A stretch of 63,998 nt of DNA, the filler included, from Dimargaris cristalligena (Eukaryota), in NCBI GenBank assembly GCA_003614675.1. It is 5 parts of 5 records of this genome, joined end to end, with 100 filler letters (N's around TTAATTAATTAA, not from the genome) between each part and the next. Parts side by side here need not be neighbours in the genome. Positions count along the whole stretch, not along the records: positions 26,134 to 39,152 come from ML003010.1; 4 more parts are not named here. One strand, 5' to 3'. This document shows positions 12,914 to 52,345 of this stretch, piece by piece. The translations under genes were made by a program, and so were the position numbers. The notes below the pieces were generated by a model. The model saw nothing but the letters and a program-made list of their open reading frames with translations, ran no database searches and had not been told where the DNA came from. How positions within the stretch are numbered: position 1 is the stretch's first letter; each line of letters starts with the position of its first letter.

Positions 12914-13013
12914 NNNNNNNNNNNNNNNNNNNNNNNNNNNNNNNNNNNNNNNNNNNNTTAATTAATTAANNNNNNNNNNNNNNNNNNNNNNNNNNNNNNN
13001 NNNNNNNNNNNNN
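12914..13013. other. Artificial contig spacer
   Basis: 100 nt of N around TTAATTAATTAA (stops in all six frames); identical to three other spacers. Confidence 0.97.
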
Positions 13014-13065
13014 TATCTTTTCAAATAAAGTTCAGTTTTCAAGGATTTGATTTCAGTTCTTTACA
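13014..13065 (+). mobile_element. 3' end of LTR-like family A, truncated by contig start, abutting a family B copy
   Basis: AAAGTTCAGTTTTCAAGGATTTGATTTCAGTTCTTTACA is also at 26276-26314 and inverted from 39083; ends in CA. Confidence 0.7.
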
Positions 13066-13770
13066 CACTTACTAGTCAGTATAAGAGGGAGTAAGTGTAT
13101 ATAGGGTTAATTAGGGGTAAACCAGGGGGTAAGAAATAAGCTAAAGAATCTAACCAGTCCTAATGGAGCCTGGTTATATATATACAGGGATACTCCAGAG
13201 GGAGGTCCCAAGGGAAGAATACTACCAAGGCTATAGTATAAGTAAATAAGCTGACCAGATAGCTATTAATATCTGGAAGACTCTGATGGTAACCAGAAGA
13301 GGCAGAGTCCAGAAGGGGAAGGGTTAGATAATTTAGGATGATCCCATAGTACCAGGGGTGACTATGGGAAGGTTAATATGGTACTATAAGGCCTAATAGG
13401 GATGGATACTAAGGTGTCTAGATTAAGGCAGATTAGATTGCAACCGGGGGAGGCATCCACCACTCATGGGCAAGAGGTCAATCCTCCCCACAGTACATGG
13501 TACTCAAGTGAGGAGGAACCAAGGACCACACCGCGACTCATCTATCCCCCACCATGGAGGAAGATAGCCCCACCCCAATGGCACAAGAACCACACCTCAT
13601 CCCAGAGGAATAATATAGGCTGCCCCGAGTGGCAGACCAGGATCCCATGTCTTTCAATAAAATAATTATTATCTACTATATTTTGTTTAGTTATTTGCCC
13701 TACTTGGCTTTAGTCATTTATACAGTTCTCTAGCCCCACTCGGCTTAATCGGTTACAAGATGGTCTGACA
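13066..13770 (+). mobile_element. Solo-LTR-like family B, 3' portion, interrupted by a family C insertion
   Basis: Aligns with 31615-32030 and ~38000-38413; ends in GGTCTGACA; almost no CpG. Confidence 0.8.
13439..13757. mobile_element. 319-bp solo-LTR-like insertion (family C) with 4-bp target-site duplication
   Basis: Termini TGCAACCG...CGGTTACA form an imperfect inverted repeat; AGAT is duplicated at 13435-13438 and 13758-13761; other family B copies are uninterrupted here. Confidence 0.8.
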
Positions 13771-23045: not shown

Positions 23046-23925
23046 CTGCCCTTCCGGTCTACGCCTGCGAGAATAAGAAGAATAATACGGTGAAGGTGGA
23101 AGGGTGGGGAAGAATAGGCCTATCGGATAATTTTCGAGAAATAAAATAATCCGAACCTCCGTCGGGAATGGGGGCGCACCTCACTTCACAATAGTAGCGA
23201 ATGTGTGCTAAAAGGCAAGAAGGGGGCGGTTGGACTTGGAAGACGAAATGTGGGAGAAAAACACCTAGCGGATTGGTTGCCGATGATTCGTCCGAGGTAT
23301 ACTAACTATTATACAGAACTCGAACAGCATTGGCTCTGCGAACCGTGAATTAGGCGAAATTGAACACAGTTGCATGAAGCCAAAGAAAGGAATACCCTCC
23401 GTTGCCATTTATAAGCAAACGGGATTCTCCCCTTCTCCCCTTAGCCTTCAAGTTCCTTTACGCAGCCGATTCCCAAAGGTTATAGGTCCAGCCGTTTAAG
23501 TCTTCTGGGGGAGTCAGTTTCATTCAGTTCTCATCGGCCAAGTTCCTCTTAACGCAGCTAACTTCCGTGGGTCCAGTTTCTCAGGGCTACCACACCTAGC
23601 GTCCCTCCTCCCCCTTCTTCTTCCTTCTTCTAACTAGACCTGCCCCTGGCTTATCTATCAGTTCACATTACCTTTGCATTGGCAGTGGCAACCCTTTCCA
23701 CCTTCTATCCCATTACCTTTCTGCGCTTGTACAATACAAACATAACCCCCCTACCTTTATCTTGTTAGTCCCCGGTTCAGTAGCCCAGTTCGCCTCGTAC
23801 TCCGCATCTCGAACCTTCTACCTGCCCTAGTCATCTTCCCCAATTCCCTCAACCTCGAACCATACCGCCTCAACCGCATCTTCTCCCACACCCCCCCCCC
23901 TTCCCCTCGAAATCCACAACTCACC

Positions 23926-26033
23926 ATGATTGTTCGCATTCGGACCAGCGAGGGAATGTTTCGCCTCGATGTAGGTTCCGATTGTACCATCGACCAATTG
24001 CGGGCTGAACTCCGCTCCTACCTACCTCGTCTTAGCCCCGCCGCCGCTGCTTCCGTCCAGTTCTTCCAAGACGCCGGCTACCAACGACCCGTACAGGCCC
24101 CGGCCCACCGGTCCTTGGGCCTGAAACACGGTGACCTCATTTTCACCCGTTTACCCGAAGGCATTACCTTGGACGACAGCTCACCTTCTTCTTCCGTGGC
24201 CTTACCGTCAAGTTCGGCCGCGGTAGCGGGGCCATCCTCTTCAACCCGTAGGGCCCCCACCCAATCCGCTAGCCAACCGTCGACATCGACAGCGGCAACA
24301 GCATCCCCGGCTAAAACGAAGGCGAAGCCATTGGCCTCGGTCTCCTCTTCGAATCAGGAACCTGCGGTGGTGGAGGATGCCGTGGATACCTACCTCGAGC
24401 AGCAGTCTGGTCTTATCGAGCGGAAACGGGACGATCGGTTCTGCAACCATAGTAGCCGGGCCATGTGCGACTACTGCATGCCTATAGAGCCCTTTGATCC
24501 CAACTACCTGGCTGAACATGCTATCAAGTACCTGTCCTTCCATAGCTATCTACGCCAACAAACCGCCTCGTCCCGGGTTGCCACTACTAAAGGGAGTAGT
24601 AACAGTGCTGGAAAGGCCAATTCGAAAGCTGCGGCGGCCCCTGGAGGGATGGGGGTAACCGTATCCACCCACCCGCCCCGCGGGGCCGACCAAATGCGCG
24701 ATGGCAAACGCATTATCCCGCCACCATTGGAGGAACCGAGCTACCGGGTCAAAGTCCCGTGTCCCGCGGGCCACCCCAGCTGGCCCGCCAGTATCTGCAC
24801 TAAATGCCAACCGGGAACCATCACTCTCCAGCGACAGACCTTCCGGATGGTTGACCACGTGTGTTTCGCCCACTCCGACCTGGTCGACCGCTTCATCCAG
24901 TACTGGCGGCAAACGGGCACCCAGCGCTTCGGCTATCTCTATGGCCGTTACGAGCCCTATACCAAAGTACCGCTGGGGATCCAGGCGGTAGTGGAAGCCA
25001 TCTACGAGCCCCCCCAGGAAACCGCCGGCGATGGACTGAAGGTCGACATGGAGTGGCCTGGCCTGGCGCGCATCGACGAACTAGCCCGGAGCTGCGACGG
25101 TCCGGGTGGCCTGCAACTCGTGGGTATGATTTTCACCGACCTGGTGGACGATGGGAAGGGCACCGGCCAGGTCGTCTGTAAACGCCACCTTGATACCTAT
25201 TTCCTATCATCTCTCGAGTGCATTTTCTCGGCTGAGATGCAGCGGCGTCACCCCAACCCCTGCAAATGGTCCACCTCGGGCCATTTTGGCAGTAAATTCG
25301 TGACTGTGGTCGTCTCCGGTAACGCCGAACGCAACATCGACTTGGCGGCGTACCAAATGTCGACCACCGCCATGGCCCTGAGTGAAGCCGACGTGGTGGA
25401 ACCCACGTACGACCCCAGTCTCGTGCGCGTCAAACCCGCGGAGGCTCACCAGCGGTACGTGCCCGACATTATGTACAAGTACAAAAACGAGTACAATACG
25501 GTGGTGTCCAAAAATGCGAAACCCGTGTTCCCCGTCGAGTACCTCATTACTACCTTAACCCACGGGTTTCCGGATCAACCGGCCCCCCGTTTTGTGACCC
25601 CCGAGCCTTTCCCAATCGTCAACCGGGGTGCACTGCAAACGGTGCCGGAACCGAATGCCCCCAACGGGGCGGCGGCGGCTTTGGCCCGGCACTTGTTCCC
25701 GGCTGACCGGTCCGCCAACTCTAAGCGGGCGGTGCCATCCTTTAGCTCCCACCTTTTCTCCGGGGCGGCCCCCTTGGCTATCGAACGGTTGTCGGACTTC
25801 CACCTCCTTAGCTATATTGCCCAAACCAATTTGTTGACCGACACTGACTTGGCCCAGTTGGCCCAACTCGCCACTACCACGCCATCATCCACTCAGCGTG
25901 CTACTCTCATCGCCCAACTCGAGCAATCCCCCAGCTGGCTAAGTTTCTGCCGGATTCTCCAAGATGCTGCCCCTAGCGCTAGCAACCGTGGACACGGGTC
26001 TGGGTCAGGCTCAAACTCGGGCCCGGGATCGGG
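23926..26033 (+). CDS. NPL4: Cdc48 cofactor Npl4, 3' end truncated by contig end
   Basis: Ubiquitin-like N-terminus, zf-NPL4 (CNHSSRAMCDYC; HPSWPASICTKCQP), QRFGYLYGRY, EAIYEPPQ, GSKFVTVVVSG, PVEYL, SDFHLL. Confidence 0.95.
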
Positions 26034-26133
26034 NNNNNNNNNNNNNNNNNNNNNNNNNNNNNNNNNNNNNNNNNNNNTTAATTAATTAANNNNNNNNNNN
26101 NNNNNNNNNNNNNNNNNNNNNNNNNNNNNNNNN
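26034..26133. other. Artificial contig spacer
   Basis: N-run with TTAATTAATTAA. Confidence 0.97.
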
Positions 26134-26314
26134 ACCTTCTCTCCCTTTCTCTATTATTTATCTATCTTTTCATTTAGGCTTCCCCTTTCAAGTATAAATA
26201 CTCCCCCTTGCTGCCACCTTTTGGAACAGTAAGCCTATCATCACTTTTCCCTTCTTATCATCTATTTTTTTGAGTAAAGTTCAGTTTTCAAGGATTTGAT
26301 TTCAGTTCTTTACA
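26134..26314 (+). mobile_element. 3' part of LTR-like family A abutting an inverted family B copy
   Basis: TATAAATA near 26193; same terminal ...GTTCTTTACA as 13065; immediately followed by inverted family B sequence. Confidence 0.7.
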
Positions 26315-26697
26315 TAGAGTCTTCCAGATGCAAGCCCCCTGGTTGAGGCCCTGACCCTTGCCTCTTCTTTAGTCATCCCATTACTCTTAAGGACCCCTCA
26401 TTATGAGCAGTCCCCACATATAAATAACTGGGCCCCTCTGGGACTGGTTCAGTTCCTTAGCTTATTTCTTACCCCCATAGTTTACCCCAATAGACTCATT
26501 ATATGCTCACCCATTGTACCAACCAGTAAGTGTGCCCATTACATATCCCTTGCATTAGCCTGCACTCCTCCTTTATTGGTTAGTACTGATCCCTCCCTAA
26601 TGCTAGTAGCCTGCTTGGCTGAGCCTAAGCCCCACCTACCATTAGAAGCCTATCCCCAGGACTCTTGATGGACTAAGAGTGGTTAACCCAGGTGACA
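26315..26697 (-). mobile_element. Solo-LTR-like family B, 5' portion, inverted
   Basis: Reverse strand begins TGTCACCTGGGTTAACCACTCTTAGTCCATCAAGAG, matching the starts at 31449 and 36940. Confidence 0.8.
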
Positions 26698-29128
26698 ACC
26701 AATAAACCCAGTTTTAATATAAATTATTTATTTGGCATTATCTCTATTGACTGATTGAAAAACAGTCATCACAATGCCTCTCTGGCCAGTAGGGCTAAAG
26801 ACAAAGATAAAGACCAATGATTACATGCTGGTCATGTACTATAGGAATGTTGGATTAAGGTACTTCCTGGTATACTGGATGAATGGCTGACCTTAAAAAT
26901 CAAGCTATTTTATTAACATTTTATATCATTTATTATAGACCTATAAGGCCTGAGCTCAGGATTCAATATGCCTAGTACAAATGGTTGAGGATAATCACAA
27001 TGGTGCCAATTAAACCAACAATGTATTCATGGGATTATATATCCAAAGAGTTGCCTGCAAGAAGATTATATAGCTTCCAGAGGTAAAATGCTGTTGGACT
27101 CCAGCCTCAACCTACAAGACTAGAGGAAGCAAGCTGGAGTGGGTTACTTCTATTTCAACATGGTCTACAGACATGTAAATTATTTACCTGCCGGTATCTG
27201 AGAAAATGCTTACCGAGTTAGAAGGGGCTGTTCTTGATACTAATGCCACCATGTTGATTGAACTGGTAGGGCGGGGGAATGGGCATCACGCGAATAAATT
27301 TGATGAATCATCAGGATCTTTTGCGCAAATTACTTATAAAATTCAGCAATTAATGACTAAAATTATAGCTATGAAACGCATACAGAAATCAGCAATATAC
27401 TCCGAAGGATATTTTGTTGAAACCCCTGATGAATGATTCAATTTACCAATAACCTATATTTGTCCACAGTGATCCATATTGAGCTGCCCAGCTGGATATG
27501 ACCTCGGAGAACCCCAAATAAGTTCATCGGAAAATATCATAGATTAAAAATCGGAATATTTACTGAGAAGCGGTGGACTCAAAACTGTCAACGGGGGGGG
27601 GGGTCCATTCGGCTAATTATATATGAGCAGCAAAAGCCGCCTATGAAACTACATGCACAACAAAATAAAGGGCGATTTGGGGATACGAATAATTTAGCCA
27701 GTCAATACAGCTACTTTAACAGCCAATTACTGGGAATGTCCAACCGCCTATAGGTGGAGGCGACTAATGTACCGCTGGCTGGCACCTCAAGTGTTACATT
27801 ATTAGGATGCCTAGTATAGCAACCATGTGCGGTTTCTTCCACCATACGGCGAATCAACCCAAGTGTCTATATCATAATTAGGTCGAAGGTGCGTATAGAA
27901 AAATCTATACAAACAAAACCGATGTTTGTTGATTCCCCTGCGATTAGTGCGGCCGTAAATTGACAGCCGCCCACCTGTTCTTAAAATTGCAGACTGCCAC
28001 TAATTGTAAGTCCGGGATCCGAAAAAAGGAATATTTAACAATACAACCCCAGTTCACGCGCAGCTGTGCTGTGAGGATAGGCGGTGGAATATTGCCACTC
28101 GCGCTACGAATGCCTGAAGATCTTTCATTAGCCGTATCGAACATTGAACGGTTATTCCAAGCATGGTTTCACAATAGTGGTATGTCTCGCTAAGCCTGCT
28201 CTTTAGAAAGTAAGATGGATGTAATAAGTAAATGTAGTATGTAAGACCATAAGCCCTTCTCTGTGCACCACCGTTGGGTGGTCACAGAGTAGCCAAAATG
28301 ACCAGTGATGAAGGGGCTTAACCAACGGAAACCTCGACGGCATTTTGGATGAATTTGTGAGGGCGAAATACTTGCCTACCGTCAAAGAAAAGGGACGATG
28401 GTCAACTTTTGATCAACACTTACAGTTAAAAATTGACAAGATCCAAAGCTATGAATGGGCCATCAAAAGTATAACTTTGCTGGTTGGGAATTCTAGTTTA
28501 GCAACGCAAGATGGAGCCAATATTCTATCGAATAATTCATTTGGGATATGTCTTATACAGTCCATCGCTTGGTACGGTAGCCGTTAGTAGTCAGCCCACA
28601 CAACCAAGCAAAGGTAAACCAACTGGATATTAGCCCAAACTGTCCCATTTCCAAAGTATTACCTCCCCCAACCCCCCCGTTTTCCAACTCTGTTGCGATA
28701 CAGTCGTATTTTGCCATTTTGTGCAACAATTTAGGCTTATCTGAATGAGTTTGTATCCCCTCCCCCAACTCCACTCTACGGAGGGGATTTCCAAGTGCTA
28801 TTTCCACCCATCCACTCGACTTTCTATTAGTCAAATACAGGCGACAGACCGACCTCCCATTAGACATGTCTGCAATTGGGAGCCCACCATGCCCAGACAA
28901 TTGATATACCTCATCCATCTTTGACCCAATACTAATTATATATAAATATATATATCACCCCTCGGCCCTTGGCCCCTAATTGGCATATACTTTCGCTGTG
29001 ATTTTACCCGTTTCGATATTCTTCATATTTTTTTCGCCTAAAGGGTCATCGTTTTCGGCACTCCTTGTCTGAATAGCTAAATTGTCTACACAGCCCCATT
29101 CCCCGCCGACTTACCCTCCACTTTTACA

Positions 29129-31029
29129 ATGAAATTTCCTTTACTTTATCTAGGGACCGCTATTTTTCTAGTAGTTTATAGCCAAGGGCACCCTGCTGGT
29201 ACGAACCACCTGTGGAAACTGTTAGAGCGCTGTAGCTTGAAAAGTAGGAAACAAACGTCATATTCTTCGAATATTGACTGCACCTATAATGATGATCCGC
29301 AGGCTATCCCAACCAAGCTCAAAAGACTTGTCGGACGTTTGAAACCGAAGGGGTCCAAACGTGAAGCGCCCAAGGCCGCATCAGAAGAAAAACAGGACCT
29401 ATCGTCAGTGGGGGCCAAGGTCACACCCGAACCGAGCCTACACGAGTCGATATCAGTTGGTGAAGTGGACTCGCAGTCGACCAAACCTAAAGACTACATA
29501 AGCAACATCCCCACCGAATTACAATTCTGTATTATGAATTATCTTACAATCGAGGAACAGGCTAGGTATACTAGCTTGTCGCGTAATCTACGGCCACTGT
29601 TCCAGGAGACTCTTAACAACTTAAGAAAAAAGGTAAGTAGAAAACATTTTATATCGGGGGTTGATTGGTGGCTCAGCTTCTGATATAAGTGACTACTGTA
29701 TCCCCCTCCCTACTCAGCTAGATTTATTCACTGTTTGTCGTAAATTGACCAGTGTCTGGCTATATTGTCAATAAGACCTGTGTATTCCCGCCTAAGTCAC
29801 TATAATTAATTTTGGCCAGTGATGCATAAATCTATTATTTACTTATACATCTTGTTGATAATATCCGGTATACTTATTGCCCTCATTAGATCAAACCCGT
29901 ATTAGACGGCATTAATGAGCGAGTGGGTTCAACTCCAGGAAAACCATTACAAGGTCCCAACCAATACTCCCAGGCCCTGCGCACGCCTTTGCTGACTAGT
30001 ATGGCCTTTTTTATCTATCAGAAGGTGTCGCAAACCGAACCCAATGATTCTGGCCACCCTGGGAATAACCTTGATTGGGTGGATTATTCTAAACTCAGCG
30101 AACGTCAACGTATACTCGCATTCCCATTCGTCGAAGGGCTTTATGCTGCATCAGCTATCTCGTGGGGCCGTGCCATGGCCAACCTGCTAGCCGGTGAGTA
30201 TCTTAAAGAACAGGGCACTTGGGCAATATCCGCCGGAACTGAAGCGCAGGCGAATCAGATTAGGGGTTATAATCGCTCTAGCCGTTACCCCCTCGAGAAT
30301 GAAATTGTCATTGCTACCGTTATCAATTCCATGCTTTTAGCCGTTGGGCAGGCGTTTCGCCGCGGGGACTACGACACCATCGATACTGCTTTAGCAGCTT
30401 TTTGGGAAGCCACCTCGTCGGTCCCTAGACCAGACCTAAGCAATATCCGGTATAGAAATGTCAAAAACCACGTCCATCACTCCCTGTGCCGATTCTTGGT
30501 GTACCTTTCGGTTCAGACCGGCGACTCTAATATTCACAGCCGCTATATAGATTTTTTGAACAAATTCCACTCGAGTGCGTCGGGCCAGAGTCGATCCGTA
30601 AATAGCATACTGTTCTTTAATACTTCTGGAGAGTGGACGGAGGACCAGCAAGAGCTTGCGGATTTCAGGGAGGATTCCAACCCAAGCGAAGATACATTGT
30701 TTTCCCTCGAAACCATCTACCCTACCAATTTTCTTAATTTTTACAACCATGAAACTATCCTCGTACGCGTCGACTCCGCGTCCTGGTCTACTACCGAGTT
30801 AGGAAAAATGCCGAAGTATACTTTGCCCATAGATTCCTCCTCCGACAATTTTTTTTACCTATTTTTGCATAATGTTAAGTTGGGTGGTGAACCTCTAGAC
30901 CACGACAACATGATCGGCCTATCTTGGATGCAAGAAGCTTTAGAGAACACACCCACTAACTTTATTCCGTCACTTGAGAGTATCCACCGGCCCATTACAT
31001 TACCTGATTCCACCCACTGGTCCGATTAG
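29129..31029 (+). CDS. Secreted F-box-like protein, copy 1 (exons 29129-29632, 29890-31029; ~547 aa)
   Basis: Signal-peptide-like MKFPLLYLGTAIFLVVYSQG|HP; F-box-like ISNIPTELQFCIMNYLTIEEQARYTSLSRNLRPL; phase-0 GTAAGT...CATTAG intron joins in frame to the 29923 ORF. Confidence 0.75.
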
Positions 31030-31448
31030 TTAACCAGATTATTATTTATCATGCTGATTTCCACATGGGCAATGGCAGTAACCCAGGTTCTAATATTTGT
31101 TAGAAATATAGATTAGATGGTAAACACAAGTGCCTTTGGATAAAACTAAAATGATTTAGAGAAGAGAGAAAGAACCATGAGGGGCAAGGCTAGATGCCCG
31201 TAGTTGGTTTTATTGAGTTGGATAATAGCAGTAATAATGATTAGGACAAAGTCCTGGGTATAGTATGATATAGTAATGGCTAGAATATAGTCCTGAGTAT
31301 AGGATGAGCTAATTATAGAGATGGAATTAGTGGGATGGGGAAAATGAATTTCTAATAATATTTTGGACAGACCAATAGGCTAATAACAATTTTTCAATAT
31401 CTGTTTGACTCTATGATTATCATAAAATACATTTTCCTATCTTCTGTG

Positions 31449-32030
31449 TATTGCCTGGGTTAACCACTCTTAGTCTGTCAAGAGACTCAGGGATAGGCTT
31501 CTAATAGTAGGTAGGGCTTAGGCTTGGCCAAGTAAGCTACTAGCATTAGGTATGGGGTATGGTACTAACTAATAAAGGCTAAAGTAGGGATATATAAGGG
31601 ATATTCAGCAGACATACTTACTAATCAGTGTAAGGGGGAGTGAGTATATATAGAGTTTATTAGGGGTAAACTAAGGGGTAGGAATAAGCTGGGGAATCTA
31701 ACCAGTCCTAATGGGGCCTGATTATATATACATAGGGACAACTCCAGAGGGAGGTCTTAAGGGAAGGCTACTACTAAGACTAAGGTATAGACAAATAGGC
31801 TGACTAAATGGTCACTGGTACCTGGAAGACTCTGATGGTAATCAGAAGAATCTTTGGATCAGTACTTAAGTGATTAATATAAAGAGTTGGAGTCCAGAAG
31901 GGGAAGGGTTATGATATAGGGTGATCCTATAGTACCAGGGGTGACTATAGGAAGGTTAATATAGTACTTTAAGGCCTTATATAGTCAGATACTAAGCCAA
32001 CCAGATTAAGATGGATTAGATAGTCTAATA
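31449..32030 (+). mobile_element. Uninterrupted 582-bp solo-LTR-like family B copy, heavily transition-mutated
   Basis: Termini TATTGCC...GTCTAATA are mutated forms of TGTC(A/G)CC...GTCTGACA seen in other copies; no matching TSD. Confidence 0.8.
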
Positions 32031-33758
32031 AGCTGAAAGACACAAAAAAGAAATCAGTAATATGCCCTGAAGGATATTTCATTAACACCCCTGATGAAGA
32101 ATTCGATTTAGCCAATTACCTATATTAGTCTGCAGTACTCCATATTGGGCTGCTAACCTGTAAATAAACTCAGAAAAACTGGGGTAAGTGAGTCAAAAGG
32201 AATCCTAGAGTCAAAATCGGATTGTTGAATAAGAAGTATTAGATTCAAAAATACCATTTTTTTTCATTTGGCTAATTATTTACGAATAGCAAAAACCGCC
32301 TGCGAAAATATATGCATAGCAAAATAAAGGGCGATTTGGGGTTAGTAATTATTTAGCTGGTGAATTCAGCAACCCTTGCTACCAGCCACTGGTATTGTTA
32401 CACTGCCTATTGTTGGAGATGGTCATTGTGCCGTAGACCGGTACTTCAAATATCATGTTGTTAGGATGTTTTATGTAACCACCGTGTAGAGCTTCCTCAG
32501 ACATGCGGATTAACCATACAATAACATATCCTATAATTCTGCGAAGTGGCGTATGGAAAAACCCTTTGGCAAAAATATATCAATCGGCAAGTCCCCTGTT
32601 GTTAGTGTGATTGGAAATCAGCGAGCGGCTTACCTGCCCAAAATAAGCTAGACTGCCACCAATTGAAAGGGAGGGATTTGAAAAAAAAATATTCAACCAC
32701 ACAACCTTAACGTTCACGTAGCACTATAGTGGGAATAGGCGGTGAAATATCGATAACCACGCTACGAATGATTCACTGTCTCTCATTAGCGGAATCGAAT
32801 ATTGGACCGTTATTCCGAGCCTAGTTTCACAGTGGTAATATGCCTCGCTATGCCTGCTCTTGAGAATAATTAAACATAATACTGTAGTATGCTTGACCAT
32901 CACCCCGTCTCTGTGTCCTACCGCTGGGTGGTCACAAGGTAGCAAAAATGGCCACTCGAGAGGGAGCACGGCCAATAGAAACTCTACCTGCATCGTAAAG
33001 GGTCGGGTGGGACTGTAGCAATTACCTGCCGTTGAAGAGAAAAGGCAATGGTCAACATGTGCCGGATTTATACAGTTAATACTGATGATTGGAGGCAGAG
33101 GAAGAGTAAAAAAAAGTATGCTTTGGCGAATGGGGAATGCTAGCTTAGGGTTACAGAGTGACACTGTCATTCCATCGCATAAATTGTTTAGGGCGTTTTT
33201 TATCGAATCTATCGCATAGTATGGTAGCCGTTGATAGTCAACCCACGCTTCTAAGCTAAGTTAAAACAGCTGTATAATGGCCCGAACTTCCCTAAATCCA
33301 AAGGACCCCTTTCCTCCATTTGTCCACTGTGTTACGATGTGGCCATATGTTTTCCATTTTGCGTAACTATTTTAGTTTTATTCGCATTGGCCCGTATCTC
33401 CTCCCCCAACTCCACTCTACGAATAGTATCCCTGAGTACCATTTTCACACGAAAGTCCGGCTTTTTTTTATCCGAATACACACAGCAGACCGACCTCCCT
33501 CTAGATATACCTGCTTCTGAGAGCCCGCCAAATCTAGTCGATTGATATGCCCCACTTATCTTTGAACCAAAGCGACTATAAATACCCACCTTCCGGCCAT
33601 TAGTCCCAAACCGGCACATATTTTGGTTGTGATAATACCGCTCTTTTACGTTTCATTTTTTCCCGCCTAATTGGGTCTTCATTTTCGATATCCCGTATCT
33701 CAATTGCAACATTGTCTGCAAACTCCCGTTACCCGCTAGCTCAGCCATTTAAATCTCA

Positions 33759-35725
33759 ATGAAACTTTTCGCTCTTCATCTTAGGGAAGTCGGCACTGGG
33801 GTCGCCATCTTTTTGGTGGCCTATAGCCATGGGCACCCTGCCAGCACAGGTCGCATTCGTAAACTGTTAGGGCGTTTTGGATTGACAAGTGAAGAACAGA
33901 CTCCCCAAGCTCCGCGTGTTCACTACACCTACAATGATGTTCCGCTGGCTACACCATCTAAGCTCAAAAGGATTATTGGACGATTAAACCCGAAAAAATC
34001 CCGTAGTAAAGCGCCCATGTCTGCACCAGTAGAAATGCAGGACCTATCGTCACTGGTGGCCAAGGACACACCCGAACCTAGCCTGCAGGAATTGTCACTA
34101 TGTGGTGAAGTGGAATCGCAGTTGACCATATCGAAAGATTACATATGCAATATGCCCGCCGAATTACAGTTTTGTATTATGAACTATCTTACAATCGAGG
34201 AACAGGCTAGGTATACTGGCTTGTCGTGTAAATTACGGCCACTGTTCCTGGAGACTCTTAACAATATGAGAAAAAATGTAAGTTTGAAACATTTCATTTC
34301 AGCATTTAATACATTTCTCAGCTCCCGACAATAGTGACCAATCTACTCCCTCACCTAGATTAGCATTGCCAGTGTTTCTCGTAAATGGACTATTGTATGA
34401 CCACATTCCGAAATCGATTAATCGATTCCCGCCCTAGCCAACACATCTAATTCTAAAGTGCGTTGCTTATATGTCCATTACCCATCAATCTCACTGACAA
34501 TGTCCGCGAAACTTGCTGGCCCCATTAGATCAAATCCGTATTGGGCGATATTAACCAGCGTGCAGGATCAACTCTGAGCGACTCGATCGAAGATTCACGC
34601 CAGTATTTCCGGGTCCTCCGCACACCCTTACAGACTAGCCTGGCTTTTTTCACCAAGCAGAATATACTGGACTTTGAACCCAATGACTCTGGCAACATTG
34701 CTGATGGATTGGTTTGGGTGGATTATTCCAAGCTCGGCGAAACTCAACGTTTATTGGAATTCCCGTTCGTCGAAGGGCTTTGTGTCGGAAATTCTAAGTC
34801 ATGGGGGCGTGCCATGGCCAACCTGCTAAGCGGCGATTATCCTCAAGTATTAGGCACTTGGGCTACCCAATCCGGAACCGATGTACAGAAGAAAATGATT
34901 ACAGCTTACTTTGATGACCACGCTAATGTTTCTGATGACGTTATTGCCATCCCAGCCATAGTGAATTCCATGTTTCTGGCCGTTGGGCAGGCATTTCGTC
35001 GCAGGGACTACAGTGTCATTGATTCAGCTTTAGCAGCTTTTTTGGAAACTGTCACGCCAGCTCAGGGGCCAGTCGTAAGGAGCGCTCGTTATTTTATGGT
35101 CAGAATTGAAGTACATTACCGTCTACACGTATTCTTGACATACTTAGCGACCCAGACTGGTAATGAAAAAAATCGTCTACGCTATGTGGATGCTTTAAAC
35201 AAATTATCCGTTGCATTTTCCAAACAAGAGCGCACCATAATGGAATTACAGGGTGTCGAAGCCGTTGTGGATTGGGCTCAGGACCAACCAGAGCCCACAG
35301 ATTTGGAGGCGATTCCCCACCCACCGACGGAAACATTAGAACGACTCGAAATAATCTACCCTACAAACTTCCTTAACTTTCTAAACCCCAAAACCATACT
35401 TGTACGTGTCGACTCCGTGGCCTGGTCTACTGCTGAGCTAGGGGAACTCCGGGAGTATGGGACATCTGTATCTGTTTCATCAGATAACCGGTTCTACCAA
35501 AAGTTGGATGATATTTGGGAGCCCTCGGCCCATTTGGCCAGAGCTCACAACGAGCTATCTTGGTTGCAGGAAGCTATGGACGCCACGGCTGATAATGCAA
35601 TTCAATTTCCGGAGTATGAGCCTACCAACTTAGCCAACCGTCTAAATGCCCGGCATGCTGATCTTCAGTCCAGCAATATTAATAACTTTGGTAATAGTTT
35701 TATAGATGATATCAATGGGCTCTAG
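33759..35725 (+). CDS. Secreted F-box-like protein, copy 2 (exons 33759-34277, 34529-35725; ~571 aa)
   Basis: Hydrophobic leader ...GVAIFLVAYSHG|HP; ICNMPAELQFCIMNYLTIEEQARYTGLSCKLRPL; same intron position; shares WVDYSKL, SWGRAMANLL, AVGQAFRR and IYPTNFLNF with copy 1. Confidence 0.75.
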
Positions 35726-36939
35726 TATCTTATTTCCGACTTTTAAAAGCGATACTAATTGTATTCAAAGACGTACCGTAGTCTATACAACCACTCTCTC
35801 TCCTTTCCGCCCCGTGTCTGGCACCCAATTTTTTTCTGACCTTCCTTAGCCCATATTTTCAGACTCCTAGTCATTTTTTTTTACAATATTAGCCCAAATT
35901 GCGAATTGATTTATTGGGAAGCTCATGGTTCACCGAGAAAAAGTATTATTGGTGACGAGTTTTAAAACTTTATCATTTACATTCATATCACTACCCCCCC
36001 CCCGCCAATAGATTGATTGCAGCGAATCAATTATTTGATAATCCGGCCCACTCTACTCTTTTAGTATAGTACCTATCAATAAAATTAGTCACAATGTAAG
36101 CCATGTATTTGACATTACTTCTATTATACAATTGAACTAAAGTCACCGCATTGCCTCTTTGACTAGCAGGGCTGAAGACTAAGGGCAATGTCTATATTCT
36201 AGCCAAGTTATATAGAAACACTGGATTAAGGTGTTTTCTATTATGCTAATTCACCGGCTGGTCTTGAAAATCAAGCTATTTAATTCACATTTTCCCTAAT
36301 TATATATAGACCTACAATGTCTAGGTTCGTGATCTAATGTTCCTAGCTCAAGTGGTTGAGGATCTTGCCGATGGTGCGGATCAAATCAACAACATCTTCA
36401 TGGAATTATATATCCAAAGAGTTGACTGAAGGAAAATTATAATAGCTTCTAGAGGTATATCCCTGAATATGAAGTTATTTTAAAACATACCTAGATGGCA
36501 GTCACAGTAGAATACTACTGCTGAACTTCAGCCCCAAGCTACAAGACTAGGGGAAGCGAGTTAGAGTGGGTTTCCTCTATTTCTACATGGTCTACGGACT
36601 TGTAAACTATCTCCCTACCAATATCTGATGAATTGTGGGCCAAGTTAGAAGTGTATATTCTTGATATGGACGCCACTGTGTTTGTTGAGTAGGAGGGGTA
36701 GGAAAATGACCATCTCCCAAACAACATTGATTAATAATTGGTATCTTTTGTACAAATTTATTATAAAATTTGACAATGAGTTCCCTAAAATATAGACAAA
36801 ATACATAATGAGAAATCATTGATATACCTTAAAGAATACATCTTAGATATCTTCAATTAAGGATAATATATAGTGAGTTGCCTACATTAGCCCATAGTAC
36901 TCTGCAATGGGCCACTAACCTAGAACTGGGCTTAGAGAA

Positions 36940-38413
36940 TATTGCCTTGGTTAACCACTCTTAATCCATCAAGAGTCCTGAGGATAGGCTTCTAATAGTA
37001 GGTAGGGCTTAGGCTTAGCTAAGTGGGCTGCTAGAGTTAGGTACAGGCATGGTGTTGGGTCAGTGGTTTGAGGCCCCTCCCTTCTGGGACTAAGGCTGGG
37101 GTTGGACCCCTTGTCCTCCCTGGGGTTGGTAGGGTCAGTGGACATCAGGTTTAGAGGGCTCAAGGTGCCTGGGTGAAACATGGAGAACTCGGGAAATGGT
37201 CCTTTGGCTAATCGGATCAGCTTGGAGCTGTTATCAGAGGTTGAACTGGGGTATGGTGCAAAATGCTCCACACAAAATGATCCTAAACTCCCGTCATCAG
37301 AGTTAGGTGCTGGGGGAGCCACAGTGGCTACATACTGAAAATAAGATAATAAAATTAAGAAAAATGAAAAATTGACTTCCAGTTGAAGTCCTTGGCTGAT
37401 GCTGGGTAACACACTGGGTGAAGTTTAAAATAGATATTTATTCCAAATAATAAAAACTTATCTCAGAGTTAACTTGCTGTTTTAAGGGCCGGCTGGGGGA
37501 ACTATATATATGCAAATTGATACTATGAACTTAGAGCTATACTACTACTTTAAGACATCATTCTCAGATGGACTGATAACTATAAAACCACAAAGGGAAA
37601 AACTGGTTGGGTCTTCAAGTTTGAATACTGTGCAAAAGGGAAAGAAAAGATATATGGGAAAATGGAAGATAAAAATGCCTTGAATCTGCCGGGGCATTTT
37701 TTGAAAGTCGATTATGGAAGAAAAGAATATGGGAAACAGAAGACAAAATTGCCTCGGATCTACCAGGGTGTTCTTGAAGGTAGGATACGGAAGACTTTGA
37801 TGTCACTCACTTGTCCCAGTGTGAGTGCTGTTCACAGCAAAGGCATAACTATGGATCAGGAATATGCAGGCATCATGGGGTGGGGTATGACAACTAGTTA
37901 GTCTAATGGAAAGGGAAAATCATCCTGACCCTTGGCAGTACACATGGTACTAACTAGTAAAGGCTAAGTACAGGTATAAGCAAGGGATATACAGTAGGTA
38001 TACTTACTAGTCAGTAGGGGGAGTGAGTGTATATAGAGTTTATTAGATAAGCAAGGGGTAAGAATAAGCTGAGGAATTAAATTAGTCCCAATGGGGCCCA
38101 GTTATATATATATGGGGGACAACTCCAGAGGGAGGTCCCAAGGGAAGGATACTACTAAGACTAAGGTATAGGTAACTAGGCCAACTGGGTAGCTGCTAGT
38201 ATCTGGAAGACTCTGATGGTAACCAGAAGAGTCTTCAGATTAGCACTTGAGTAATTAGTTTAAAGAGGCGGAGTCCAGAAGGGGAGGGGTTATATGATAT
38301 AGGGTGATCCCATAGTACCAGAGGTGACTATGGGAAGGTTAATATGCTACTATAAGGCCTAATAGGGATAGATACTAAGGTGTCCAGATTAAGGAGGATT
38401 AGATGGTCTGACA
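36940..38413 (+). mobile_element. Family B solo-LTR-like copy interrupted by an 890-bp insertion
   Basis: Starts TATTGCCTTGGTTAACCACTC, ends AGATGGTCTGACA; flanks do not form a TSD. Confidence 0.8.
37053..37942. mobile_element. 890-bp TG...CA insertion (family D) with 5-bp TSD CATGG
   Basis: CATGG at 37048-37052 and 37943-37947; the empty site (TATGG-TACTAACT) is in the 31449 copy. Confidence 0.75.
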
Positions 38414-38797
38414 CTGGTGACCCAGATTAGTAATCTTGAAATCCATGGATACTATATAGATATTATCAATATAAGATACATTGATACAATAGGAAAACTC
38501 CTGGCAAAAGATAATCTACATCATATTAAAAATATTGTGGGTTGGACTTTACCTTAGCTAAAAGTCATGGACTCAGTGGTGATTTCTAGACCATCTGAAG
38601 AAAGATTAAAATTACTTGATACAACTCTCTACTTTATAAACTTTCTTAACTTTGTTTACCCCAAAACCACCCTTGTACATTTAGATTATGCATCCTGGTC
38701 CACCACTGAGTTGGGACAACTCCCCCAGTATAAGTCATCTGTACCTGCATGCCTCAACTTTAAATTTTACTCAAGATTGTTAAAAATGACTACCTGA
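38414..38797 (+). pseudogene. 3' remnant of a third secreted F-box-like paralog
   Basis: INFLNFVYPKTTLVHLDYASWSTTELGQLPQY matches copies 1 and 2 (TNFLNF..ETILVRVDSASWSTTELGKMPKY); 5' part absent; stops upstream. Confidence 0.8.
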
Positions 38798-39082
38798 TTA
38801 AGACCAGTAATTTCTCATGACAATACTATTCTGGAATAGATAAATAAAATAATTAGAAAGAAAGAAGCACAAATAGAAGTTAAGACTTGAAATGAGATTT
38901 TTTAGGTAGATTTCACATCAATTAGAGACTGTTATGTATGGAATGTATGGGGGGAAATAAATCCAAACTCAGGATGAGGTTGTTCTCCAGCAATAGGTTA
39001 TATAGTTTGCAAGTAGGAGTGCCTCAATCTGTGATTAGATAAACTAGAAATAATATTATAGAGAATATTAGGTGAGCCCACT

Positions 39083-39152
39083 TGTAAAGAACTGAACTCA
39101 AATCCTTGAAAACTGAACTTTATTTGAAAAGATAGATAATAAAAGGGAAAGG
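39083..39152 (-). mobile_element. 3' end of LTR-like family A, inverted, at contig end
   Basis: TGTAAAGAACTGAACTCAAATCCTTGAAAACTGAACTTTATTTGAAAAGATA is a near-exact reverse complement of 13014-13065. Confidence 0.7.
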
Positions 39153-39252
39153 NNNNNNNNNNNNNNNNNNNNNNNNNNNNNNNNNNNNNNNNNNNNTTAA
39201 TTAATTAANNNNNNNNNNNNNNNNNNNNNNNNNNNNNNNNNNNNNNNNNNNN
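39153..39252. other. Artificial contig spacer
   Basis: N-run with TTAATTAATTAA. Confidence 0.97.
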
Positions 39253-52245: not shown

Positions 52246-52345
52246 NNNNNNNNNNNNNNNNNNNNNNNNNNNNNNNNNNNNNNNNNNNNTTAATTAATTA
52301 ANNNNNNNNNNNNNNNNNNNNNNNNNNNNNNNNNNNNNNNNNNNN
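52246..52345. other. Artificial contig spacer
   Basis: N-run with TTAATTAATTAA. Confidence 0.97.

Follow-up and report, generated by a model that had tools for sequence, protein, structure and literature searches.

The genome of Dimargaris cristalligena encodes a small family of proteins that we interpret as candidate secreted F-box effectors, with a probability of roughly 0.45. Two intact two-exon paralogs of this family, copy 1 (29129-31029) and copy 2 (33759-35725), lie on the plus strand of a 13-kb contig, according to our reading of ORFs and splice sites. Coordinates refer to the window, the whole stretch of 63,998 nucleotides (filler included) that was analysed. The layout described in the original prediction, a leader followed by a basic linker, an F-box-like motif, an intron and a long C-terminal domain, is present in both paralogs, with the following parts.

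26134..39152, no strand: family-bearing contig, 13,019 bp, with N44-TTAATTAATTAA-N44 spacers on either side in the window
29129-29632, plus strand: copy 1 exon 1, ATG at 29129, 168 codons, phase 0
29129..29188, plus strand: copy 1 leader, residues 1-20, with M-K, 16 uncharged residues and S-Q-G before H-P
29189..29488, plus strand: copy 1 basic, low-confidence linker, residues 21-120, dN/dS 0.65
29489..29632, plus strand: copy 1 F-box-like motif, residues 121-168, reaching up to the end of exon 1
29633..29889, plus strand: copy 1 intron, 257 nt, GTAAGT donor at 29633, TAG end, AG acceptor at 29888-29889
29890..31029, plus strand: copy 1 exon 2, coding to 31026 plus stop, 379 codons, helical domain
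33759-34277, plus strand: copy 2 exon 1, ATG at 33759, 173 codons
33759..33833, plus strand: copy 2 leader, residues 1-25, with S-H-G before H-P
34134..34277, plus strand: copy 2 F-box-like motif, residues 126-173
34278..34528, plus strand: copy 2 intron, 251 nt, GTAAGT donor at 34278, acceptor at 34527-34528
34529..35725, plus strand: copy 2 exon 2, coding to 35722 plus stop, 398 codons, helical domain

The spliced products of copies 1 and 2 are 547 and 571 aa long, respectively, and in both copies the chosen ATG is the first one downstream of an in-frame stop. The N-terminus of copy 2 is identical with that of public model P0002, and the splice junction of copy 1 (RKK followed by IKPV) is the same as in public model P0001. 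For copy 2, the public JGI model has a 78-nt mini-exon (34303-34380) after a 25-nt intron, instead of the 251-nt intron. The public models of copy 1, from JGI and from a second assembly, are one identical 412-aa sequence that starts at an internal Met and does not include the leader, which counts against a reading as secreted F-box effectors.

A profile search of 1,835,955,588 representative proteins gave five matches at E<=0.001, four of them from D. cristalligena: the two window genes, P0003/P0006 (4e-35) and P0004 (1e-12). The family comprises four intact genes and one relic, and its real relatives beyond the window pair number two, both from D. cristalligena; judged by this search, it is a small family confined to that species. 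P0004 retains the leader, the linker and the helical domain, and is the one member of the four in which no F-box core is recognisable. The C-terminal domain, which the original prediction could not assign, is all-helical in the predicted model of copy 1 exon 2 (pLDDT 51.7); a fold search with it returned no specific fold match, and copy 1 exon 2 matches no Pfam family.

Two further features of the contig bear on the history of the pair.

27384..29128, plus strand: upstream flank of copy 1, co-duplicated with the gene and pairing with 32049-33758 at about 65-66% identity
38414..38830, plus strand: remains of a degraded third copy, which align with the conserved C-terminal portion of the helical domain

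The third-copy fragment was detected by tblastn (34% identity over 139 aa, E=3e-14), and an ORF within it (38558-38794) is 44% identical to residues 258-326 of copy 2. Along with this fragment, the contig holds dispersed non-coding repeats, and no TE protein domain was found on the 13 kb that carry the genes. The window joins several contigs end to end, and the apparent housekeeping neighbours are on other contigs. The ‘TE-rich island’ in which the original prediction had placed the genes is not borne out by these observations.

Protein identity between the two copies is 64% in exon 1 (101/159) and 47% in exon 2 (170/361). Nei-Gojobori dN/dS is 0.20 for the leader, 0.65 for the linker, 0.26 for the F-box and 0.44 for exon 2; the whole-gene value of 0.46 does not demonstrate positive selection. 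Over residues 1-119, non-synonymous differences occur at 67 of 272 sites and synonymous ones at 34 of 85 (Fisher p=0.0085), and by this measure leader and linker are under purifying selection. Exon 1 has a sole indel of 15 nt, while in the upstream flank 14 of the 16 indel runs have a length not divisible by 3. When neutral drift was simulated at half the flank divergence, exon 2 was stop-free in 3 of 5000 copies. Both genes are, on these comparisons, held open by selection. It is highly improbable that they are non-functional or mis-modelled ORFs, decaying as duplicates on a repeat-rich contig: although a look for RNA runs came back empty, the third copy has already decayed and the DNA identity of exon 2 is no higher than that of the flanks, ORFs of 547 and 571 codons are intact, none of the segments tested reaches a dN/dS of 1, the exon 1 indel is in frame, neutral simulations almost never leave exon 2 open, and the same architecture recurs in distant paralogs at other places in the genome.

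The original prediction had set a conserved adaptor against a variable domain, and this contrast is present in the alignments. The F-box-like stretch has 39/47 residues in common between the copies, counted on the exon 1 protein alignment, and its dN of 0.095 is far below the 0.465 of exon 2, which encodes the C-terminal domain; the latter value is similar to the non-coding divergence of 0.446-0.542. However, dS is lower in exon 1 (0.50) than in exon 2 (1.06), and gene conversion could therefore account for some of the contrast. In its overall build, with a conserved F-box and a variable domain in an expanded paralog family, the family resembles translocated F-box mimic effectors such as SSGP-71, RipG/GALA and AnkB, the variable domain being an unassigned helical one rather than of the LRR or ANK type.

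The predicted motif, here in the form I-x-N-[IM]-P-x-E-L-Q-F-C-I-M-N-Y-L ... L-S-x-x-L-R, is found in both copies. The core pattern [LI]-P-x-E-[LI] ... I/L ... L occurs in copy 1, copy 2 and P0006, a distant paralog that retains [LIM]-P-x-E-L ... I-M ... L, and the columns that do not vary in the alignment include P, E, L, Q, I, M and L. The F-box profile PF00646 matches the 54-aa segment of copy 1 with E=0.00095, but at 19.4 bits it stays below the cut-off of 20.5. Isolated segments were matched by PF00646 in two of three cases at E<=10, and by PF12937 in one of three (13.3 bits versus 24.3). When whole exon 1 was scanned against Pfam, an F-box match was obtained for one of the two copies and none for copy 2; among the full-length proteins, none of three gave an F-box profile match in the Pfam scan. 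PRANC, a truncated viral F-box model, matches the same segment weakly in copy 1 and P0006 (E 0.022-0.24). F-box, PRANC and F-box-like, which we take to be members of the F-box clan, are the only Pfam families that match anywhere in these proteins, all on this segment. P0002 and P0006 are labelled ‘F-box domain-containing’ in UniRef. Of the 11 PDB sequences that a profile built from the three F-box segments matched at E<=10, none is an F-box protein. In the AlphaFold model of P0002, three short helices are predicted in the F-box region (134-141, 146-152 and 160-176), at low confidence (pLDDT 33-47). By sequence, the F-box assignment is borderline, and we call the motif ‘F-box-like’.

The 54-aa segment of copy 1 was docked on Skp1 with a score of 0.71 (runs 0.71, 0.71 and 0.84), compared with 0.01 for the best of three controls; of the solved complexes, 51 of 78 reach the mark used, as do 2 of 108 mismatched pairs. 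The runs share at least 80% of their contacts, with a partner pLDDT of at least 77, and the contacts connect Skp1 residues 78-160, in the C-terminal half, with residues 5-51 of the F-box segment. The Skp1 in these models is a fungal-type stand-in from a metagenome contig, not the host’s Skp1. The motif of copy 1 docks in a controlled model, a result that speaks of likeness to solved F-box/Skp1 complexes and not of binding. Because F-box and Skp1 are a textbook pair, the pass may reflect the model’s memory of such complexes. The Dimargaris proteins resemble ordinary fungal F-box proteins in the [LI]-P-x-E-[LI] ... I ... L motif, in the three predicted short helices and in the modelled placement of the segment against the C-terminal half of Skp1, but differ from them in a motif score under the curated cut-off.

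The sub-threshold score and the lack of a match among the PDB sequences would also be expected if these were secreted or cell-surface proteins whose helices only resemble an F-box, or are left over from one, and no longer bind Skp1, with the helical domain acting extracellularly or in the secretory pathway. The architecture of P0004, which has leader, linker and helical domain and no motif, suggests that export and the helical domain form the core of the family. Nevertheless, we consider this explanation rather unlikely, given that no other part of the window genes is as conserved as the F-box stretch, that the core pattern is kept in P0006, and that the segment docks on Skp1 at 0.71 with all three controls at or below 0.01.

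All four family members start with one or two basic residues and 13-18 uncharged residues, followed by [ST]-x-G and then x-P. A cleavable ER signal peptide has a basic n-region, an h-region of about 7-15 residues and small residues at positions -3 and -1. The signal-peptide layout (n/h/c) that had been predicted for the leader was found in 4/4 members, by a rule-of-thumb script and not a trained predictor, with an n-region net charge of +1 or +2, S or T at -3 and G at -1. Flanking charges in three of the four members favour translocation of the C-terminal side, so that the leader, whether cleaved or uncleaved, would place the F-box outside the cytosol. Since the C-terminal domains are only 23-28% identical among the members, the leader has been conserved while the proteins diverged deeply. 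The equivalent of the linker in copy 2 has a pLDDT of 22-44 in the predicted model, and we know of no translocation motif for this lineage.

F-box proteins of the ordinary kind reside in the cytosol or nucleus and, to our knowledge, do not have a signal peptide; organelle-anchored F-box proteins exist as well. The family could consist of endogenous F-box proteins, in which the hydrophobic stretch is a membrane anchor that is not cleaved off, or a signal that is weak or goes unused, and which serve as organelle-tethered SCF adaptors on the cytosolic face, with the parasite’s own Skp1. The docking model is compatible with such a role, because Skp1 is conserved and the parasite’s Skp1 would fit equally well, and the charge balance of copy 2 is ambiguous (+2 on the N-terminal side, including the free amino terminus, versus +3 after the stretch). 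We nonetheless regard an endogenous role as unlikely. An uncharged stretch of only 13-18 residues is short for a membrane span, the small-x-G and x-P that follow it in 4/4 members are the pattern of a signal-peptidase site, no basic residues come directly after it, and the charges favour a cytosolic N-terminus in 3/4. Moreover, fast evolution in a one-species family is unusual for housekeeping SCF adaptors.

In favour of the reading as secreted F-box effectors, D. cristalligena is, as had been proposed, a parasite, described as a biotrophic mycoparasite of other fungi (PMC6784888). We hypothesize that the N-terminal leader would direct ER entry and be cut after [ST]-x-G, and that the protein may be released at the interface with the host Mucorales hypha and reach the host cytosol or nucleus. 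There, the F-box-like three-helix motif would dock on the host's Skp1, at its conserved C-terminal half, as in the in-silico model, and the fast-evolving helical domain could bring host proteins to the SCF ubiquitin ligase of the host, or simply titrate Skp1. The genes were duplicated in tandem and their C-terminal domains then diverged rapidly, which may have diversified the targets. That a haustorial mycoparasite exports lineage-specific F-box adaptors to the hyphae of its fungal host, with a new, fast-evolving helical substrate-recognition domain joining the host SCF ubiquitin ligase, is a tentative proposal, possible but with the odds against it.

If true, a ubiquitin-ligase-mimic effector would be described for the first time in an interaction between two fungi. 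It would also be a rare case in which the Skp1 proteins of parasite and host are so alike that secretory routing must spare the parasite’s own. Should the proteins be exported and bind host Skp1, fungal-fungal parasitism would be added to the settings of the SCF-hijack strategy, which is known from bacteria, poxviruses and a gall midge, and the helical domain would offer a concrete handle on host targets. With four genes and standard assays, the effector idea is directly testable. Almost no effectors of fungus-on-fungus parasites are known to us. In the searchable literature, no effector for which any mechanism is proposed was found for the early-diverging Zoopagomycota and no paper contained both ‘Dimargaris cristalligena’ and ‘F-box’; the genome paper of D. 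cristalligena has 0 occurrences of ‘secreted’, ‘effector’, ‘F-box’ and ‘ubiquitin’.

Eukaryotic precedents that the original prediction had missed are SSGP-71 of the Hessian fly (Mayetiola destructor) and an arbuscular-mycorrhizal candidate. The SSGP-71 proteins reportedly carry signal peptides and form a large, expanded family (Zhao et al. 2015). According to PMC4617103, the family interacts with host Skp proteins and some members have no F-box. Like the Dimargaris family, SSGP-71 belongs to a eukaryotic parasite and combines an N-terminal F-box with a variable target-binding domain. It differs in having C-terminal LRRs rather than a helical domain without a known family, and a plant rather than a fungus as host; moreover, host-Skp interaction data exist for SSGP-71, whereas the Dimargaris family has a docking model only. 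The other precedent, Rhizophagus clarus NLS_30765, is listed in PMC4746824 as a 542-aa protein of the predicted effector repertoire, with an F-box-like match (PF12937, 2.8e-07) and no other homology. On that description it is, like the Dimargaris proteins, a fungal candidate effector of similar size with an F-box-like motif, and likewise only a prediction; in contrast to them, it comes from another phylum and a plant symbiont and has a clear Pfam F-box match. A sequence relation between NLS_30765 and the Dimargaris family was not found.

Agrobacterium VirF is an F-box adaptor delivered into another organism’s cell. The same holds for Legionella AnkB, which uses the SCF ligase (PMC2790608), and Ralstonia RipG7 binds Arabidopsis SKP1-like proteins (PMC4617103). 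RipG/GALA, AnkB and VirF follow the logic proposed here for the Dimargaris family, in that a host SCF ligase is used, but they are bacterial, lack a Sec-type signal peptide, are injected by type III/IV systems, and have LRR or ankyrin target-binding domains. Poxvirus ankyrin/PRANC proteins are made inside the host cell and carry a C-terminal F-box behind ankyrin repeats (PMC9414399). Their link to the Dimargaris family is the weak Pfam PRANC match of copy 1 and P0006; they differ from it in the C-terminal position of the F-box and in being made inside the host cell.

The two paralogs occupy exactly the coordinates of the original prediction (29129..35725), as judged by our reading of open reading frames (ORFs) and splice sites. 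They share one exon/intron structure, and the start of each is the first ATG past an in-frame stop:

29129-29632, plus strand: copy 1, exon 1 (ATG at 29129; 168 codons), ending at a GTAAGT donor
29890-31026, plus strand: copy 1, exon 2 (379 codons) plus stop, after an intron of 257 nt
33759-34277, plus strand: copy 2, exon 1 (ATG at 33759; 173 codons), ending at a GTAAGT donor
34529-35722, plus strand: copy 2, exon 2 (398 codons) plus stop, after an intron of 251 nt

The encoded proteins are 64% identical in exon 1 and 47% identical in exon 2, and 39 of the 47 residues of the F-box-like stretch are the same (our own count on the exon 1 alignment). Both are listed as D. cristalligena hypothetical proteins in public databases, with models that look imperfect. 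The public model of copy 1, P0001 (412 aa; RKP34960 / KAJ1976968), has the same splice junction as ours, and starts at an internal Met in the F-box-like motif, residue 137 of our model (29129-29536 omitted). It thereby loses the first F-box helix together with leader and linker. The model of copy 2, P0002 (597 aa; RKP34961; UniRef name 'F-box domain-containing protein'), has the N-terminus of our model. In this JGI model a 25-nt intron is followed by an extra 26-aa (78-nt) mini-exon at 34303-34380 (together 34278-34380). The insert is missing from copy 1 and from the D. cristalligena paralog P0006, and we think that the 25-nt intron is too short.

The evidence indicates that the ORFs are real genes, leader included. 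Between copies 1 and 2, dN/dS is 0.46 overall, with values of 0.20 for the leader, 0.65 for the linker, 0.26 for the F-box and 0.44 for exon 2. Over residues 1-119, non-synonymous differences are found at 67 of 272 sites, against 34 of 85 for synonymous ones (p=0.0085). Exon 1 contains a single indel, of 15 nt; of the 16 indel runs counted in the upstream flank, 14 are frame-breaking. That the ORFs are junk is highly improbable. The dN of exon 2 (0.465) is indeed close to the non-coding divergence of flank and intron (0.446 and 0.542), yet more than 370 exon 2 codons are open in both copies, and a neutral simulation at half the flank distance left only 3 of 5000 sequences stop-free. The helical domain is thus maintained as protein despite very fast sequence change. 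Such an open but fast-changing domain fits proteins in conflict, a pattern that does not in itself prove positive selection. At synonymous sites, exon 1 has diverged about half as much as exon 2 (dS 0.50 against 1.06), a hint of gene conversion affecting the 5' part or of parts of unequal age; such conversion may add to the contrast between 'conserved F-box' and 'variable tail'.

All four members of the family start with the same type of leader, and a K/R-rich linker comes next. In the leader, 1-2 basic residues precede an uncharged stretch of 13-18 residues and a small-x-G motif, which reads S-Q-G/H-P, S-H-G/H-P, S-Q-G/Q-P or T-S-G/N-P (slash, predicted cleavage). The helical domains of paralogs sharing this leader are only 23-28% identical, and conservation of the leader despite this divergence is our chief reason to regard it as functional and not as a hydrophobic start that arose by chance. 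By a charge-balance heuristic, the flanking charges favour translocation of the C-terminal side in three of the four members, which would place the F-box outside the cytosol even with an uncleaved leader. This speaks against an endogenous adaptor anchored to an organelle, an alternative that we consider unlikely and on which the charge balance of the remaining member, copy 2, is ambiguous. Kex2-type KR sites are found in both window copies; read from the alignments, they are not conserved in P0006 or in a further paralog, P0004. A GH16 glycoside hydrolase ORF on another contig (55429-56580, plus strand), which served as internal comparison for the leader heuristics, has a clear signal-peptide-like start.

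Assignment of the F-box by sequence is borderline. With the PF00646 profile, exon 1 of copy 1 reaches 17.8 bits and its segment taken alone 19.4 bits; the profile matches two of three isolated segments and none of the three full-length proteins. The only other families that Pfam reports anywhere in these proteins, PRANC and F-box-like, fall on those residues too. All these matches are to the F-box clan, and the best PF00646 score stays below the cut-off of 20.5. P0006 has an F-box-like core (L-P-P-E-L-Q-x-I-I-M), and no core is recognisable in P0004 by Pfam or by eye. A phmmer search of the PDB with exon 1 gave nothing relevant, and a three-segment F-box profile retrieved designed MID1sc helices alone (E 1e-5), with no chain of an F-box protein among its matches.

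Because the sequence evidence is borderline and the AlphaFold models are too poor, we modelled docking on Skp1. The stand-in was a complete 160-aa fungal-type ORF from a metagenome contig (L114:114-593), located through a short degenerate pattern that captures a conserved Skp1 motif and confirmed as Skp1 by Pfam (PF01466 6.9e-31, PF03931 8.7e-24). The 54-aa segment of copy 1 docked on it with a score of 0.71 (runs 0.71, 0.71 and 0.84), and the controls reached 0.01, 0.00 and 0.00; 51 of 78 solved complexes attain the docking mark, as do 2 of 108 mismatched pairs. Between runs, at least 80% of contacts agree, with a partner pLDDT of at least 77. Contacts involve Skp1 residues 78-160 and segment residues 5-51, and are tightest at the C-I-M-N-Y-L helix. 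The contacted Skp1 residues are the seat of F-boxes in solved SCF structures. Since F-box and Skp1 are a textbook pair, the docking result, which agrees with the Skp1 adaptor role originally proposed, shows likeness to an F-box as the model sees it and not binding. With its odds raised by docking, the copy 1 segment is quite probably a genuine divergent F-box. An exported protein with F-box-like helices that have lost Skp1 binding is an alternative that we regard as unlikely.

The C-terminal domain is almost entirely helical in predictions and belongs to no Pfam family. AlphaFold2 models from four-sequence alignments were poor (mean pLDDT 42.5 for P0002; 51.7 with a pTM of 0.57 for copy 1 exon 2). 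Foldseek found no PDB match at E<=0.001, and its top rows, designed helical repeats and armadillo proteins, are generic, in agreement with the earlier statement that the domain could not be assigned. The best Z-scores of a wide VIA-align search, 8.3 for a designed nanocage and 8.0 for the Cep104 TOG domain, are background for helical models. The ESM Atlas gave no usable match for copy 1 exon 2; for P0006 neither its best feature score (0.76, TPR_27 on 25% of a plant cluster) nor its best structural TM (<=0.34) was informative. As modelled, the domain looks like a generic alpha-solenoid, a common shape of substrate-binding parts in ligase adaptors.

The family is confined to one mycoparasite species among 1.84 billion representatives; a check of taxonomic range was called for with the original prediction. 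A word-indexed protein search matched only the two window proteins (2 among 2,967 candidates), and such searches with the F-box region returned family members only. A HMMER profile search of the representatives gave five proteins at E<=0.001: the two window proteins, P0003 (4e-35), P0004 (1e-12) and P0005 from Styela clava. P0003 is a shorter model of P0006 (615 aa; RKP33722; UniRef 'F-box domain-containing'); P0004 (922 aa; RKP37297) and P0006 are both from D. cristalligena. We rejected the Styela clava protein (E=3e-8) as a chance match driven by repeats, seven repeated stretches falling on profile positions 259-316.

D. cristalligena forms haustoria in Mucorales. Its genome paper (PMC6784888) calls the species a biotrophic mycoparasite. 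We hypothesize, with a probability of about 0.45, that the window proteins are candidate secreted F-box effectors, from export to target choice. The leader would direct entry into the ER and be cleaved; the protein would be released at the host interface and taken up into the host cytosol, where it would recruit host Skp1/SCF, with the helical domain choosing the targets. This reading draws on the coding constraint on the leader, the restriction to one mycoparasite, the leader and linker shared throughout the family, the F-box-clan similarity, the docking model, the fast-evolving helical domain and the tandem duplication with its relic. The observation underlying the original prediction was thus confirmed, and its interpretation as secreted F-box effectors is partly supported, as a hypothesis.

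Hijacking of SCF is an established strategy, used by Ralstonia RipG/GALA (PMC4617103), Legionella AnkB (PMC2790608) and poxvirus ankyrin/PRANC proteins (PMC9414399). The Hessian fly SSGP-71 proteins combine an F-box with LRRs and interact with host Skp, and some members lack the F-box (PMC4617103); in Rhizophagus clarus, one of the predicted effector candidates carries an F-box-like domain (PMC4746824). In contrast to the LRR or ankyrin F-box effectors of known systems, the Dimargaris family has an unassigned helical domain. If the effector reading is correct, the novelty would lie in the phylum, in a fungus as host and in this helical domain standing where other systems have LRR or ankyrin repeats. 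We found no literature pairing Dimargaris cristalligena with F-box. The terms F-box and ubiquitin are absent from the genome paper (PMC6784888), a 2026 mycoparasite effector paper and a zygomycete secretome paper, the supplements of which may list the proteins as predicted secreted.

The duplicated segment measures ~4.6 kb and takes in ~1.7 kb of flank upstream of the gene; the DNA of 27384-30408 is 68% identical to that of 32049-35047. Broken down by part, identity between the copies is highest in exon 1 (0.74), followed by the upstream flank (0.65), and is 0.60 in both the intron and exon 2. The upstream flanks (27384-29128 and 32049-33758) are 65-66% identical, on par with coding DNA, and their minus-strand ORFs (28556-28954, 33335-33652, 32727-33260) have no Pfam match. 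The surroundings comprise:

12914-13013, 26034-26133, 39153-39252 and 52246-52345: spacers (N44-TTAATTAATTAA-N44) between separate contigs of ~13 kb
26134-39152: contig with both genes (13,019 bp, identical to the recorded length of the contig bearing P0001 and P0002), between the second and third spacers
38414-38830, plus strand: decayed piece of a third copy, with a match limited to the conserved C-terminal portion of the helical domain
31559-32026, 37944-38409 and 13063-13438: repeat, the last copy on a neighbouring contig
26700-27400 with 36077-36827: repeat (broader listing 26410-27400, 36077-36827 and 36921-37043)
26247-26314 and 39083-39150: inverted copies of a repeat at the contig ends

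Since contigs are joined at the spacers, gene neighbourhood across them is not real, and ORFs reaching a spacer are cut by contig ends (e.g. NPL4 at 23746-26085). The housekeeping ORFs (MAD, START, HVSL, NPL4, glutathione peroxidase, GH16) lie on other contigs and are therefore uninformative for the genomic context of the family, which is accompanied on its own contig only by dispersed non-coding repeats of 72-87% identity. Twenty ORFs were scanned without finding a TE protein domain: 10 long ones across the window, which are housekeeping genes or unassigned, and 10 further ones, nine intergenic on the gene-bearing contig and one on a neighbouring contig. 'Repeat-rich' is thus a fair description, and the 'TE-rich island' proposed as an effector compartment gained no support from these scans. 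No tRNA genes were found, nor any tRNA-like part in the dispersed repeats. The inverted repeat copies at both contig ends suggest that the assembly broke in repeats. The relic at 38414-38830 sits right behind a copy of the repeat at 31559-32026.
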